This document shows, one piece after another, positions 51-20,365 of a stretch of 64,000 bases of DNA (within the stretch, counting starts at the first letter, position 1; each line of letters starts with the position of its first letter). A program made the translations under genes and the position numbers. Below the pieces are notes generated by a model that made no database searches, had not been told where the DNA came from, and saw only the letters and a program-made list of their open reading frames with translations. This stretch comes from a virus: positions 252,878 through 316,877 of the IMG/VR virus record IMGVR_UViG_3300025030_000039. One strand, given 5' to 3'.

Positions 51-70
51 TTGTTATTATATTTATATAT
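51..70 (+). promoter_or_regulatory. conserved promoter-like motif TTGTTATTATATTTATATA upstream of ORF 98..424
   Basis: One of about 20 near-identical motif instances ending 30-45 nt upstream of an ATG. Confidence 0.5.
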
Positions 71-97
71 TAATTAAAATACTAAAATTTAATACTA

Positions 98-424
98 ATG
101 ACAATCGAAGATAAATTCAAGGAACTTATTCAAACTGTTGGTGGTACAAATAAAATTTTATTTGACTCTATGGTTGAAGAAGTATGGCCTAAAGTAAAAG
201 AAAAAATAGATTCATTTAACTCAATATCTCCAGTTGAAATAAATTTTAATTATACGCAAGAAAATGATTATCCTGATATTATTTTCTTTTTATATATGGA
301 TAAAATAAAAGAAGTAGTATTAGAATATTTAGAAACAAATCATCCTGATGCCTGGTTTAAACCTATATATTATTCAGGTGATCAATTGAAGAAATGGAAA
401 AAAGATAATAATTATACAGAATAA
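98..424 (+). CDS. hypothetical small protein
   Basis: ORF with upstream conserved motif and ATGA start context. Confidence 0.5.
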   Translation: MTIEDKFKELIQTVGGTNKILFDSMVEEVWPKVKEKIDSFNSISPVEINFNYTQENDYPDIIFFLYMDKIKEVVLEYLETNHPDAWFKPIYYSGDQLKKWKKDNNYTE

Positions 425-559
425 TAAAATGAACAAAGATACTATAGAACCTACATTTACAATTTCCCAAATACAAGAAGCATGGTTAGAAATATACAAA
501 GAAGATATAGTTTTGCAATATCCAGATTTTATAACTACCTTAATAAATAAAAATTAAAA

Positions 560-748
560 ATGAAAAAGAATTATAAGATTGGTGATAAAGTATCATCTAA
601 CAATCATCCTGAAATTGGAAAAGGTGAAATAATTTGTATTTCACATTACATTAATATAGCAACAATAAAATTAGATACTCCATTCAATGATAATGGAAAA
701 TTATGTACTAAAGCTGATTTAAGTATTAAAGAACTAATAGATGCATAA
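560..748 (+). CDS. hypothetical small protein (62 aa)
   Basis: ORF only, no conserved promoter. Confidence 0.35.
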   Translation: MKKNYKIGDKVSSNNHPEIGKGEIICISHYINIATIKLDTPFNDNGKLCTKADLSIKELIDA

Positions 749-869
749 TAATATTCTATAATAAAACACTTAATGTTTAAACATAAAATATCTTCCTAAA
801 GAGTTTAAAAGAAATTCTAAAAGCTTAAGGCTTTAAAATATACATTTCCCTTCTTCTTAGCGTTAAATT

Positions 870-915
870 TTATATTGGGCCGGCTGAAAAAGTTTCACTT
901 TTGGCTGGCTATTTT
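870..915. repeat. conserved intergenic motif B copy 1 (TATATWGGGCCGGCTRAAAAAGTTTC...GGCTATTTT)
   Basis: About 85% identical to 16530..16580; weaker copy near 18565..18600. Confidence 0.5.
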
Positions 916-1042
916 TTATTTTTGTTTAAAATTTTTATTACTTGAATCTAATAGGAATTATCGTTTTATGTTTATAATATGCATATATTATCTTTCAATT
1001 AATTTCATTTTATTTAAAATTTTATATTCCCTGAATATAAAC

Positions 1043-1135
1043 CATGTATACCCTTTGTATATTCCGGTAATACTTGGGCACAGTTTAAAACCTGGATATA
1101 TTACCTATTATAAAATTATTACTAGAGTCCTAGTA
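1043..1135 (+). repeat. conserved about 93-bp intergenic element A copy 1 (CCATGTATACCCTTTGTATATTCCGGTAATACTTGG...)
   Basis: About 75% identical overall, near-identical in the first 38 nt, to 15296..15390 in the same orientation; possible small RNA or regulatory element. Confidence 0.55.
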
Positions 1136-1198
1136 TAAAATAATTTAAAAAAATAAACTTTAAAAAGAAGTATAAAAATATTTTTTTATTTCGGCCTA

Positions 1199-1217
1199 TG
1201 TTATTATATTTATATAA
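1199..1217 (+). promoter_or_regulatory. conserved promoter-like motif instance
   Basis: TGTTATTATATTTATATAA, 33 nt upstream of ATG 1251. Confidence 0.55.
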
Positions 1218-1250
1218 TTAATTTTATTAAAAACAAATAAATAACAAAGT

Positions 1251-1829
1251 ATGGAAACATTCAAAATTAAACAAAGAATTGAAGAATTAAAATCTAATTC
1301 AGATTTTGATCATTCATTAGACAACATTTTCGATGCATGTGCAATTTCTAAAAAGGAATTGCTTTCAGTCGCTAATGATATTTTACCACATTTACATGCT
1401 GGCGATATTATTCCAACAACTTCAGAAATAATAGAAGATGCTATTATTGCAATAAAAATTCATTTTAATGATACTACTCCTGTTTCTAAACAAGAAAGAA
1501 TGCTCGGTCTTATGATAGAAAGTATTATTGCAGCAATAGATAAACCAAGACATTCTATTATATCATCAATGTCTAAAGATCCTGGATTATTATCGATTAT
1601 TAAAGATTTAGTTGATAAAGGTGAAATACCAAGCTTTAAAGAATTTTTACAAAAAACAGGTAAAGATAAACAATTTAAAGATTTTATGAGTTCTCATTCA
1701 CGAGAAGATTGCGAAGCTTGCGAAGCAAAAGAATTATGTCCAGAATATAATGAAACAGAAAAAATATCAAATAATGCTTCTTTAGACGGAATTCCTTACA
1801 TACCATTCGGAAAAACTGGACAAGCATAA
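1251..1829 (+). CDS. hypothetical protein (192 aa)
   Basis: ORF with conserved promoter motif; no recognisable domain. Confidence 0.6.
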   Translation: METFKIKQRIEELKSNSDFDHSLDNIFDACAISKKELLSVANDILPHLHAGDIIPTTSEIIEDAIIAIKIHFNDTTPVSKQERMLGLMIESIIAAIDKPRHSIISSMSKDPGLLSIIKDLVDKGEIPSFKEFLQKTGKDKQFKDFMSSHSREDCEACEAKELCPEYNETEKISNNASLDGIPYIPFGKTGQA

Positions 1830-1850
1830 ATCAATACAAATAATTATTTT

Positions 1851-1880
1851 GGAAAAGTCTTACAACATTAAGACTTTTCC
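1851..1880. terminator. 12-bp perfect stem-loop (GGAAAAGTCTTA/TAAGACTTTTCC) flanked by T and A runs
   Basis: Inverted repeat directly after the stop of 1251..1829; possible bidirectional terminator. Confidence 0.4.
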
Positions 1881-18440: not shown

Positions 18441-18700
18441 AAATATACTTCTACAGCATCTTATACTACTCCACTTATACAATATATTTAAGCATCATAC
18501 ACCGACTCTTTACCGTTATATCTTATTAACACTCTTATCTTTATACTTTTCTTTTCAGATTCTCTCTATAAGGGCCGTCTAAAATCTATCTCTCTTCAAT
18601 CTACTCTTTCTTCAACATTATCAGTATCCCGGCTATCAATCACTTATATGCCTCTCTATCCTTTTAAACTTTATACCCTTTTTAATGTTTATTTCCAATT

Positions 18701-18720
18701 CTTTAATTTTTATATTATAT
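18701..18720 (+). promoter_or_regulatory. conserved promoter-like motif variant (TATATTATATTTATATCATT)
   Basis: Same variant as upstream of 19628. Confidence 0.45.
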
Positions 18721-18766
18721 TTATATCATTAAATAATTATTAATTAATCTATTAAATCTATCAATT

Positions 18767-19201
18767 ATGAAAACACTAAACCTTTTCCTAACACTCTTTA
18801 CACTAACATCTATTTTCACTGCATGCGAAAAAGATGAAGTAATAGAGCTTAAACAAAAAAATGATGAACTATCAACAAACGTTAACAATCTTCAACATCA
18901 ATTCGACACTCTTAGTCTTGACACCATCATCAATGGTACTGATACCATCATTATTCTCAACAGCGATACAATCTACATCAGCACTCATGATACCATCTAC
19001 ATCGCTCCAGATAATACATTCATTGAAGACTCACTTAGTATTGAAATAAACATTACTTCAAATACTGGAAATGAATCCGTAAGATATGAATTAATTCCAT
19101 ATAACTTTTTAACACCGCCAATACATACCTTTGAATCATCCTATTCAACCTCTGCTACACAAAAGTACCTACTACATGATATAAAAGTACCTACTACATG
19201 A
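18767..19201 (+). CDS. putative lipoprotein (signal peptide ...LTSIFTAC)
   Basis: N-terminal hydrophobic segment plus a lipobox-like Cys; 23-bp tandem duplication at the 3' end (19163..19208). Confidence 0.55.
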   Translation: MKTLNLFLTLFTLTSIFTACEKDEVIELKQKNDELSTNVNNLQHQFDTLSLDTIINGTDTIIILNSDTIYISTHDTIYIAPDNTFIEDSLSIEINITSNTGNESVRYELIPYNFLTPPIHTFESSYSTSATQKYLLHDIKVPTT

Positions 19202-19388
19202 TATAAAATACCGACTAAAAATAACAACAATTAGTACTGATTGTACATTTACTCTAAACTTTAAAAATTCATCTGATAAAACAATATCATTAACAAATGG
19301 CTATAACCCATCAATCGAACTATTCATTACCTACAATCAATCTACTCATACTTTCATACTAACAAATATGAAATAATTACCTCAAACA

Positions 19389-19417
19389 AAAAAGAGCTTA
19401 ACCGCTCTTTTTTTTCA
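19389..19417 (+). terminator. rho-independent terminator
   Basis: AAAGAGC-ttaacc-GCTCTTT followed by an 8-T run. Confidence 0.6.
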
Positions 19418-19568
19418 TCACCCACGAACCATCAACTTCTTATTCTTTATCTTTCCATCCTCTATTACAAGAACCTCTATATCCATTAATTTTTGGACCC
19501 ATCCCAAAAAAATAAACTTTATTAAATATGTTATTTTCTTTAAAATAAATTTCCAGTTCTTTATTTTT

Positions 19569-19588
19569 TATATTATATTTATATCATT
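19569..19588 (+). promoter_or_regulatory. conserved promoter-like motif variant
   Basis: TATATTATATTTATATCATT upstream of ATG 19628. Confidence 0.45.
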
Positions 19589-19627
19589 AAATAATTATTA
19601 AATATTAACTTATAAAATTACTACAAA

Positions 19628-20083
19628 ATGAAAACACAAACCGAAAAAACAGAAAAAATGCTTAAAAAAGAAAAAGCAATGCTAAACAACATGCTCACTC
19701 ACTTAAAATCAAACAGTATCAAATGTCAAATCGACAAAATCAAAGAAATCATCATTCAGGAAAAAACTGATAAAGTTGAAGAAATCAAAATCGATGAATT
19801 AATTCTTAACGGTTATTACAAATCAAATGAAAAATTCAACTTCAAACTATCAGTTCATCCCGAAGAAATAAATGAAAACGGTCACCCTCAAGTAATTCTT
19901 CAACTAGAAGTTGAATCTAACAAATTCATAAAAATGCACCCCCAAACTAACGGTCAACTAACTTTTATGATCAAAAACTTTCAAACAGGTATAGAAGAAA
20001 CTTCTACTATAGAAAACTCTACAATAGAAAACTCTACTCCTGAAATAACTACAAAAGATAACAAAAACAACAAAAAGAAATAA
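19628..20083 (+). CDS. hypothetical protein, tandem paralog of 20400..20900
   Basis: Shared N-terminus MKT..KTEK.LKKEK.M..NM.TH.K and C-terminus ...HPE..NENGH.QV...Q TNGQL.FM..NF. Confidence 0.6.
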   Translation: MKTQTEKTEKMLKKEKAMLNNMLTHLKSNSIKCQIDKIKEIIIQEKTDKVEEIKIDELILNGYYKSNEKFNFKLSVHPEEINENGHPQVILQLEVESNKFIKMHPQTNGQLTFMIKNFQTGIEETSTIENSTIENSTPEITTKDNKNNKKK

Positions 20084-20104
20084 CAAACCCCTATACCAAA
20101 TCAA

Positions 20105-20131
20105 AGGAGTATTCAAACACTCCTTTTTTTT
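20105..20131 (+). terminator. rho-independent terminator
   Basis: GGAGT...ACTCC hairpin followed by an 8-T run. Confidence 0.5.
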
Positions 20132-20344
20132 CGGCCTTCACCCACCAATTCATTCCTTTCATCATACATCAACCACAATGCACGATTACTTTATACCACT
20201 TAGTTACATGAACCCTTTGTCACGAGCGCAAAATTTCCTTATTCTCTTCATGAACCCTACCCTACCATTCGGGCCCATCCCTCCTAAAATTTATTTAAAA
20301 TTTTTTAAAATACTTTATTAATTATTTCCGATTCATCCCGATTT

Positions 20345-20365
20345 ATATTATATTTATATAACAAT
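20345..20365 (+). promoter_or_regulatory. conserved promoter-like motif instance
   Basis: TATATTATATTTATATAACAA upstream of ATG 20400. Confidence 0.5.

Follow-up and report, generated by a model that had tools for sequence, protein, structure and literature searches.

Between positions 51 and 20,365 of the 64,000-nucleotide stretch analysed here (the window; positions 252,878 to 316,877 of IMG/VR virus record IMGVR_UViG_3300025030_000039), 19 open reading frames (ORFs) on the plus strand are preceded by copies of one highly conserved, promoter-like motif, and this paper describes the distribution, anatomy and probable recognition of that motif. The window matches the complete 462,018 bp genome LR756500.1 (GenBank 'uncultured phage', unannotated), which was used for all genome-wide counts and to which record positions refer; window position 9852 equals record position 1, and the window therefore spans the origin of the record. 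LR756500.1 corresponds to GWB1_PHAGE_COMPLETE_CIR-CU-CL_25_34 from Rifle groundwater (Al-Shayeb et al. 2020, PMC7162821, supplementary data), and a CRISPR spacer from GWF2_Bacteroidetes_35_48 matches phage positions 400360-400394 with one mismatch, which links the phage to a Bacteroidetes host (PMC7162821). Crude ORF calling on the whole genome yielded 672 ORFs, covering about 88-91% of the DNA; nearly all genes are carried by the minus strand, the exception being a plus-strand block of small genes that runs from ~410 kb through the origin to ~15 kb. The phage encodes a T4-type terminase and RIIA, and a search with its tail sheath retrieved 634-735-kb huge phages, Lak phages of Prevotella, and Flavobacterium and Tenacibaculum jumbo phages as relatives. 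Sequences resembling a Shine-Dalgarno (SD) element precede only 4.6% of the phage ORFs, and A is enriched at -13..-10 and at -3, as in Flavobacterium johnsoniae.

The sites in the window, designated class E, are listed below with the position of their 12-nucleotide core TTATTATATTTA or its variant, the downstream ATG, and the score obtained with a position weight matrix (PWM).

19..65 (+), putative E promoter; core 54-65; ATG 98; 44.2 bits
1166..1212 (+), putative E promoter; core 1201-1212; ATG 1251; 38.1 bits
3551..3597 (+), putative E promoter; core 3586-3597; ATG 3627; 44.7 bits
3940..3986 (+), putative E promoter; core 3975-3986, variant TTATTAAATTTA; ATG 4007; 37.1 bits
5672..5718 (+), putative E promoter; core 5707-5718; hairpin terminator 5636-5668 immediately 5'; ATG 5746; 43.0 bits
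7281..7327 (+), putative E promoter; core 7316-7327; ATG 7353; 39.9 bits
8757..8803 (+), putative E promoter; core 8792-8803; ATG 8834; 45.2 bits
10837..10883 (+), putative E promoter; core 10872-10883; ATG 10909; 41.2 bits
11556..11602 (+), putative E promoter; core 11591-11602; ATG 11632; 38.7 bits
12849..12895 (+), putative E promoter; core 12884-12895; ATG 12915; 32.1 bits
13114..13160 (+), putative E promoter; core 13149-13160; ATG 13203; 39.8 bits
14228..14274 (+), putative E promoter; core 14263-14274; ATG 14300; 45.9 bits
14758..14804 (+), weaker putative E promoter; core 14793-14804, upstream boxes degenerate; ATG 14849; 22.2 bits
15409..15455 (+), putative E promoter; core 15444-15455; ATG 15494; 51.3 bits
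17033..17079 (+), putative E promoter; core 17068-17079; shared leader tataacaattaaataattataca; ATG 17103; 52.8 bits
17434..17480 (+), putative E promoter; core 17469-17480; shared leader tataacaattaaataattataca; ATG 17504; 42.9 bits
18677..18723 (+), putative E promoter, sub-variant with ATTTCC box and TTT-ATATTATATTTA; ATG 18767; 27.8 bits
19535..19581 (+), putative E promoter, ATTTCC/TTT-ATATTATATTTA sub-variant; ATG 19628; gene 41% identical to the next; 33.5 bits
20310..20356 (+), putative E promoter, ATTTCC/TTT-ATATTATATTTA sub-variant; ATG 20400; 32.9 bits

The motif family is real and strongly selected. The 21-mer on which the initial annotation was based occurs 16 times in the window with at most three mismatches, against 0.4 occurrences expected, and none of 100 shuffles reached 16; all 19 listed sites were recovered with the core at no more than one mismatch plus alignment. 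A PWM of 52 positions scored the window sites at 22-53 bits, the top score in 10 shuffled windows being 9.1, and it detected 12 further strong sites outside the window on which it had not been trained (26-51 bits). The exact 12-mer is present in 56 copies genome-wide where ~8 are expected, 42 of which lie on the sense strand at most 80 nt upstream of an ORF and only five within ORFs, and each of the 45 PWM matches is intergenic and sense to the next gene. Genome-wide, 31 full E sites were found, all on the plus strand and all between record positions 416.8 kb and 10.5 kb, a block of ~55 kb with about 124 small ORFan genes; no E site occurs elsewhere in the genome. Ten sampled proteins encoded behind the motif gave no match at curated Pfam cut-offs and only marginal PHROG matches. 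Paralogy among the 124 block proteins is confined to few weak pairs (36-41% identity), by which recent duplication was ruled out as the reason why the copies are so alike: genes with a 100% identical core in front of them have no relation to one another or share no more than 36-41% identity, and the spacers vary, which argues for selection rather than duplication. A scan with the sigma-70 consensus was uninformative (148 sites, 151 expected).

The 19 sites listed by the initial annotation are all present, intergenic, in sense orientation and located before ORF starts, with coordinates that were off by 0-4 nt and, at 18701, by 7 nt; the refined motif starts are 50, 1197, 3582, 3971, 5703, 7312, 8788, 10868, 11587, 12880, 13145, 14259, 14789, 15440, 17064, 17465, 18708, 19566 and 20341. 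At every one of these sites the first ATG past the core is the listed ORF start, at a core-to-ATG distance of 19-46 nt, i.e., 14-41 nt from the end of the 21-mer, so that the 30-45 nt given earlier are roughly right only. The identical leaders reported for many sites are found at about five to six, mostly neighbouring ones (window 17068, 17469 and 20345, a variant form at both 18712 and 19570, and a single site beyond the window); as a general feature they were ruled out, most of them lying in the cluster at window 17-20.4 kb. Likewise, the noted preference for ATGG starts holds as a modest enrichment (12 of 19 window sites and 15 of 31 genome-wide, compared with 26% of all ORFs). The proposal that the motif is promoter-like and marks a class of small, probably early genes is upheld by the sense, intergenic position of the sites, their restriction to one ORFan block and the presence of other motif classes before metabolic and structural genes. 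Features that had escaped the first reading are upstream boxes (ACTTT and ATTTTT), leaders free of G, and copies of the core on the minus strand, which in the window are located at 30201, 34338, 44680, 46701 and 58408.

The full composite spans ~50 bp and reads tACTTTa-N6-ATTTTT-N12-tTTG-TTATTATATTTA-tataa, with rigid spacing between the boxes. Counted from the first T of the core (position 0), its elements are:

-34..-28, tACTTTa box (ACTTT at -33..-29); C in 15 of 19 window sites
-21..-16, ATTTTT box; TTT invariant across the 19 window sites
-12 and -10, T.T; conserved
-4..-1, tTTG; G in 25 of 31 genome-wide sites
0..+11, core TTATTATATTTA; essentially invariant
+12..+16, tataa; weaker

The contiguous conserved element measures 16 bp (TTTGTTATTATATTTA), and the E motif consists of A and T only, except for one C and one G. 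The leader contains almost no G (a single one among the 620 positions from +12 to +31 of the E sites), and in 24 of the 31 E sites the first G past the core is that of the start codon, at a background upstream G frequency of 7.6%; consequently, no upstream AUG, GUG or UUG is possible in a G-free leader. A spacer pattern, ..tt.cGGCCt, is common to many phage sites.

The core is shared by a second class (class M), which often has ATTTTT at the E-class distance, lacks ACTTT and carries A or T, not G, at position -1. About 30 M sites precede operons of the minus strand in two regions (record 20-122 kb and 359-390 kb), among which are those for NAD (nicotinamide adenine dinucleotide) synthetase, NMNAT/NUDIX, ATPases, and the sigma factor designated sigma1. 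The two classes differ discretely: position -1 is G in 25 of 31 E sites and in none of 31 M sites, position +12 is T in 20 of 31 E sites and C in 26 of 31 M sites, and ACTTT is found in E sites only. In the window, class M is represented by:

30190..30222 (-), putative M promoter, ATTTTT-N15-TTATTATATTTAcatat-ATG; heads the operon 30184-28178, in which the sigma gene is last; ATG 5 nt past the core
34327..34359 (-), putative M promoter; core 34338-34327; 23.3 bits
44669..44680 (-), core-only M site; upstream of 44633-44316
46690..46722 (-), putative M promoter; ATG 3 nt past the core; 17.7 bits
58397..58429 (-), putative M promoter; heads the NMNAT/NUDIX to NAPRTase operon; 21.7 bits

Several M cores have an ATG just 1-6 nt downstream (window 30190-30201 and 46690-46701; record 94417, 115901 and 208121), and as this ATG does not lie beyond the predicted start site, the mRNAs may be leaderless or have very short leaders, or the starts may be mis-called. 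A handful of TATATTTGcata sites in this phage resemble G-variants of class M. Moreover, in window 13942-14046 (+) ATTTTTT and aCTTTT precede an M-like core (TTATTATATTTAc) that has no ORF behind it; a strong hairpin terminator (14002-14035, fold z-score -3.8) is located ~50 nt past this core, and the region is a candidate either for a small RNA (~85 nt) or for an additional terminator belonging to the gene upstream.

A third class (class L), obtained de novo from k-mer enrichment, has the consensus tGATATATAA.aaAAaaaaa (GATATATAA), a -10-only motif with no conserved -35 element. It precedes 26-28 genes at 11-30 nt before the ATG, mostly at record 80-360 kb. Among their products are the tail sheath and baseplate wedge, the head maturation protease, a virion structural protein, homing endonucleases and a transposase; class L is probably the late class. 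Two L-class sites are located in the window:

21531..21538 (+), L-class site (GATATATA)
26888..26895 (-), L-class site (GATATATA); upstream of 26867-25758

Outside the window, a gene of ~54 amino acids occurs in three copies (record 367386-367550 (+), 382764-382928 (+) and 429749-429913 (-)) with nearly identical upstream regions of ~75 nt, each including an L-class motif, and this triplicate may be a small mobile or duplicated cassette.

Promoters of the Bacteroidetes primary sigma factor (sigma-ABfr) are said, in the work of Bayley 2000 and Chen 2007, to consist of a -33 TTTG and a -7 TAnnTTTG element, for which a 19-bp spacer was reportedly found optimal by Chen et al. 2007. In F. johnsoniae the -7 element reads TAHHTTTG, with T-12, A-11, T-8, T-7, T-6 and G-5 nearly invariant, transcription starts 4-5 nt downstream of it, the mean leader measures 33 nt, and a weak -33 element is accompanied by AT-rich motifs at -18 and -28 (Baez 2019, PMC6847099). 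The octamer TATATTTA, at +4..+11 of the phage motif, matches seven of the eight positions of TAnnTTTG, a consensus of the phylum from which the actual host may deviate; TATATTT is invariant in 19 of 19 window and 62 of 62 genome sites, save for a T-to-A variant at one H position. The TTTT of the ATTTTT box is located exactly 19 nt upstream of the octamer, at rigid spacing, and has T where the -33 TTTG has G. In -7 numbering, TTTG-TTAT falls at ~-20..-13, T.T at ~-28/-26 and ACTTT at ~-49..-45. The assertion of the initial annotation that the motif does not fit the Bacteroidetes TTTG/TAnnTTTG spacing is not supported, given the 7/8 match and the TTTT box 19 nt upstream; it arose because the TTTG beside the core was taken as the -33 box, while the real upstream box is ATTTTT. 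The phage motif shares with sigma-ABfr promoters the TA-HH-TTT octamer, the T-rich box 19 nt upstream and the AT-rich positions around -18 and -28, and with Bacteroidetes genes the implied leaders of ~15-40 nt, the lack of SD elements and the A at -3 and -13..-10. It differs from them in the G-to-A change in the -7 box and the G-to-T change in the -33 box, and in a far more extensive conservation than in host promoters, over 16 contiguous bp (TTTGTTATTATATTTA) plus ACTTT at about -47.

In the related phage LR745206.1 (634 kb; 100 kb examined), the words TATATTTG, ATATTTGT and TATTTGTA, with the consensus ttCCtTATATTTGta, are enriched upstream of genes, as is AATATATA(A); LR756501.1 (735 kb; first 50 kb) has TTAATATATA[AG] and a few copies of TATATTTGta. 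In both phages TATATTTGta occurs at gene starts with the ATG 3-41 nt downstream, and since this TATATTTG stands in the matching position, the core is the homolog of the canonical -7 box and the G-to-A change is particular to the phage studied here. The relatives share with it the TATATTT- box by gene starts, the short leaders and the A/T-only, late-like (A/G)ATATATA(A), and differ in that they keep the canonical G (ttCCtTATATTTGta) and show no long E-type array in the 100 kb and 50 kb examined. An L-like motif is common to the clade. LR745206.1 also displays the very-short-leader pattern described for class M (TATATTTGtaaaATG).

Searches elsewhere retrieved no comparable array. An IMG/VR scan with the 15-mer TTGTTATTATATTTA gave only single chance hits among the matches listed, and scans with ATTTTT-N12-TTGTTATTATATTTA gave 11 (IMG/VR), 86 (metagenome) and 33 (GTDB genomes) single matches in scattered taxa, without an array; a multi-hit contig, WLWD01000396.1, turned out to contain an unrelated repeat and was discarded. 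The early region of Flavobacterium phage MaF61, a phage too distant for the purpose, has no comparable repeated motif, and no repeated motif was detected at record 392-412 kb, which was checked for a fourth, canonical-G promoter class. Positions 279-312 of metagenome contig Ga0209536_100939808 (1067 bp, 36.5% GC) carry ATTTTTTTATTTCGGCCTTTGTTATTATATTTA, which shares 97% identity with the site at window 1201 across 34 nt, the 'non-conserved' spacer included; it is followed by ATGG, an 11-codon ORF and a phosphofructokinase fragment, and the rest of the contig is without phage match.

As a candidate reader of the motif, the initial annotation had put forward the product of the following gene:

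28178..28723 (-), sigma1, phage extracytoplasmic function (ECF)-type sigma factor; no close homologs

This product was confirmed as a sigma factor and is of the ECF type, and reading of the E motif by sigma1 is possible, if less likely. A homology search with sigma1 retrieved only itself, with no close homolog in 5.8 billion proteins, and its nearest relatives are sigma factors of crAss-like phages (27-29% identity). For a second ECF-type sigma factor (sigma2, record 145446-146207), homologs are present in LR745206.1 and 15 records of Lak phages, and in both sigma factors only regions 2 and 4 were detected. ECF sigma factors as a class are without region 3, and sigma1 would therefore not be expected to read a contiguous element of 16 bp; these 16 bp, together with boxes at ~-35 and ~-47, would better fit a group-1 sigma factor with region 3, along with contacts of the C-terminal domain of the alpha subunit (alpha-CTD). 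The AAC-type -35 and CGT-type -10 elements of ECF promoters (~16-17 bp apart) are absent from the motif, and the ECF sigma genes are not adjacent to the array; phage ECF-like sigma factors may diverge in specificity, and for that reason the missing elements only lower the probability of recognition by a phage sigma. Furthermore, the sigma1 gene itself is located in an operon behind an M-type core, which implies that some other enzyme form must read that core first. Overall, the phage ECF-type sigma factor(s) are more likely to serve class L than class E. Regarding RNA polymerase (RNAP), an NADFDGD-type motif was not found in six frames of the genome, a test that is not exhaustive for highly divergent enzymes, and no RNAP family was matched among the 25 largest phage proteins. 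T4-like jumbo phages have been described as being without RNAP and as encoding sigma factors by which the enzyme of the host is recruited (Iyer et al. 2021).

In the surroundings of sigma1, genes on the minus strand (window 28780-29559, 30755-33238, 39448-40722, 44701-45861, 54747-55934 and 57455-58366) encode a macro-domain protein, an 827-amino-acid protein with major-vault-protein shoulder and SPFH domains, a PARP-catalytic-domain protein, and the NAD-salvage enzymes NAPRTase, cytidylyltransferase/NMNAT-like and NUDIX. These genes look like an ADP-ribosylation/NAD module that could modify host proteins such as RNAP.

In the interpretation that we hold with moderate confidence, the E motifs are the early promoters of a T4-like huge Bacteroidetes phage and are read by the host sigma-A RNAP; recognition of both E and M by the host sigma-A holoenzyme, and of L by a phage sigma, is the favoured assignment. 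Promoter activity, early timing, the form of the polymerase and the start site are what we infer for class E from sequence. Host RNAP with the Bacteroidetes primary sigma factor (sigma-ABfr type) would act as soon as the DNA has entered, with TATATTTA standing in for the -7 element TAnnTTTG, TTTT (in ATTTTT) for the -33 element 19 nt upstream, TTTG-TTAT for the AT-rich position around -18, and ACTTT, at about -47, where the alpha subunit would make an UP-like contact. With a start of transcription 4-5 nt past the core, the leader would be G-free, rich in A/U and ~15-40 nt long; its first AUG would be the start codon, and it would suit the SD-less translation of the phylum. The 31 E promoters would fire through the 55-kb block, whose small ORFan genes (about 124) presumably serve host takeover, while class M (core without ACTTT and TTG) would drive metabolic operons and the phage sigma operon, and class L (GATATATAA) the structural genes, being the likelier target of the phage ECF-type sigma(s). 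The distribution of the classes, with E only in the ORFan block, M at NAD-metabolism, ATPase and sigma1 operons, and L at structural genes, suggests such a temporal logic.

Several observations weigh against recognition by the unmodified host enzyme. The final -7 position is A instead of G in 61 of 62 sites (31/31 E, 30/31 M) and the -33 box is TTTT instead of TTTG, by which both host-signature Gs are systematically absent; early phage promoters as a rule resemble the consensus of their host closely. In this phage, gene-upstream regions show no enrichment of canonical TAHHTTTG (19 sense versus 26 antisense; 4 versus 4 in the early region), related huge phages do use the canonical-G box (TATATTTG), and the bacterial genome scans show no genome with repeated copies of the motif. 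The lost signature Gs keep two other readings alive, in which recognition depends on a phage sigma or on a reprogrammed host polymerase. Host core RNAP carrying a phage ECF-type sigma (sigma1 or sigma2) could read an A-ending, phage-private dialect, and we regard this as doubtful: the replacement of both Gs in essentially all sites, the lack of TAHHTTTG enrichment here while relatives use TATATTTG, and the co-occurrence of a lineage-specific sigma1 with a lineage-specific promoter variant speak for it, yet the sigma1 operon is itself headed by the shared core, both sigmas are of the ECF type whereas the long element, without AAC/CGT-type ECF elements, would suit a group-1 sigma, and a separate, -10-only class L before structural genes is available to the phage sigmas. 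In addition, sigma2 is conserved in relatives that also carry the L-like AATATATA, and at time zero there must already be a promoter class that can be read. A reprogrammed host sigma-A RNAP, which would read the core only after the action of a DNA-delivered or very early phage factor, is unlikely, and less probable than a phage sigma. Such a factor might be an ADP-ribosyltransferase acting on alpha (T4 Alt-like) or an activator binding ACTTT/cTTTG (MotA/AsiA-like sigma appropriation), and the extra boxes would then tell class E from class M; the discrete differences at -1, +12 and ACTTT between classes sharing one 12-mer are consistent with this, as are the PARP-type ADP-ribosyltransferase domain, macro domain and NAD-salvage enzymes encoded near sigma1. 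However, no MotA, AsiA or Alt homolog was identified in the phage, and the rigid box spacing is equally explained by direct holoenzyme contacts.

Much less probable is recognition by an unrecognised, possibly virion-packaged phage RNAP, in the manner of phiKZ-like phages, AR9 or crAss-like phages. Virion RNAPs of the crAss-like type escape profile searches, and very large proteins without family assignment are encoded (1801, 1501, 1527, 998 and 700 amino acids); nevertheless, the searches for the NADFDGD motif and for RNAP families described above were negative, the phage is T4-like (terminase, RIIA, sheath) and so belongs to a group with sigmas and without an RNAP of its own, and the core closely resembles a host-type -7 box. 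The least probable explanation is a non-promoter role as recombination or mobility cassette, as binding site of a replication or packaging protein, or as translational signal. Repeated promoter cassettes beside ORFans (PeSL elements) mediate gene shuffling in T4-type phages and the block flanks a putative origin region (see below), but the strict sense orientation, the agreement of first ATG and gene start at 19 of 19 sites and the near absence from coding DNA point to transcription, as does the homology to the -7 box; an adjacent stem-loop occurs at only 2 of 31 sites. Cutting across these alternatives, the ~60 promoters with both Gs replaced and boxes added may constitute a private dialect that is poorly read by unmodified sigma-A and read efficiently only by RNAP reprogrammed through a phage product, either the lineage-specific sigma1 or a modifier delivered with the virion; we consider this improbable, to about the same degree as recognition by a phage sigma. 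If true, the E and M temporal classes would be switched by two flanking bases, G/W at -1 and T/C at +12, and the phage would have built its orthogonal transcription system out of the promoter architecture of its host.

Other features of the genome are described here for completeness. At the origin of the record, a 1.3-kb noncoding stretch (window 9430-10870) splits the early block; on its plus strand G is greatly above C, and it has no Rfam match. Nine 18-bp tandem repeats (TGTACCTCTAGTAAAGTT) at window 9702-9850 are flanked by two TT[AC]GATTAAAAATTTTTG copies, and a 47-nt inverted repeat (98% complementary) is present at window 10145-10191 and 10521-10567. In appearance the region resembles an origin of replication, although a structured noncoding element is possible as well; no tRNA or Rfam family was found by scanning the window. 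The 30 nt at window 1959-1988, which complete an inverted repeat (AAATTAAATAAAGAAGAA ... TTCTTCTTTATTTAATTT), are missing from GenBank LR756500.1, through a difference in assembly or curation or because strains vary at this hairpin. The gene at window 23297-24928 (+), with 69-bp tandem DNA repeats at 23411-23940, belongs to a family of ~7 repeat proteins, possibly of the leucine-rich-repeat type, with scattered paralogs at record 180972, 198758, 313382, 331856 and 411169 (47-65% identity). Outside the window, record 258686-260530 encodes a ribonucleotide reductase large subunit with a C-terminal intein-splicing domain, and the genome contains several DUF7487 and REase-like proteins of 615-647 amino acids.

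We know of no promoter architecture described for huge Bacteroidetes phages (Lak/'Mahaphage' group) in the literature searched. The present analysis offers a three-class (E, M, L) transcription map covering a complete genome of 462 kb, places about 124 ORFan genes in what is probably an early programme of host takeover, and allows gene starts to be corrected on the basis of the first AUG past the core. Moreover, the long rigid consensus and the G-free leaders are a ready design for strong Bacteroidetes promoter and 5'-untranslated-region parts, in a phylum for which genetic tools are limited, and the loss of two signature Gs that are kept in relatives raises the question of how far the specificity of sigma-ABfr can drift or be reprogrammed.

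The early promoters of T4, the host-takeover module of SPO1, and T5 are arrays read by unmodified host RNAP, with a consensus that is near that of the host and extends beyond it in length. Like these arrays, the E class comprises tens of near-identical, co-oriented promoters in a cluster of small ORFans, with UP-like upstream elements, next to a separate class for structural genes (GATATATAA), the later class being served, by analogy, by phage sigma(s); unlike them, it belongs to a different host phylum and promoter code, and its consensus departs from the host's at the two most diagnostic bases. With the PeSL cassettes of T4-type phages it shares repeated early promoters beside ORFans in a plastic region, and identity with such cassettes was ruled out, a T-run hairpin being located upstream of only 2 of 31 E sites compared with 5.6% of random positions. 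T4 late promoters (TATAAATA, gp55) resemble class L in being -10-only without a conserved -35 element and in the small sigma proteins encoded by the phage, and differ in that the sigmas found here are ECF-type with region 4 and have no known gp33/clamp dependence. Conserved early-promoter arrays are standard large-phage biology, and it is this instance and its deviations that are new.

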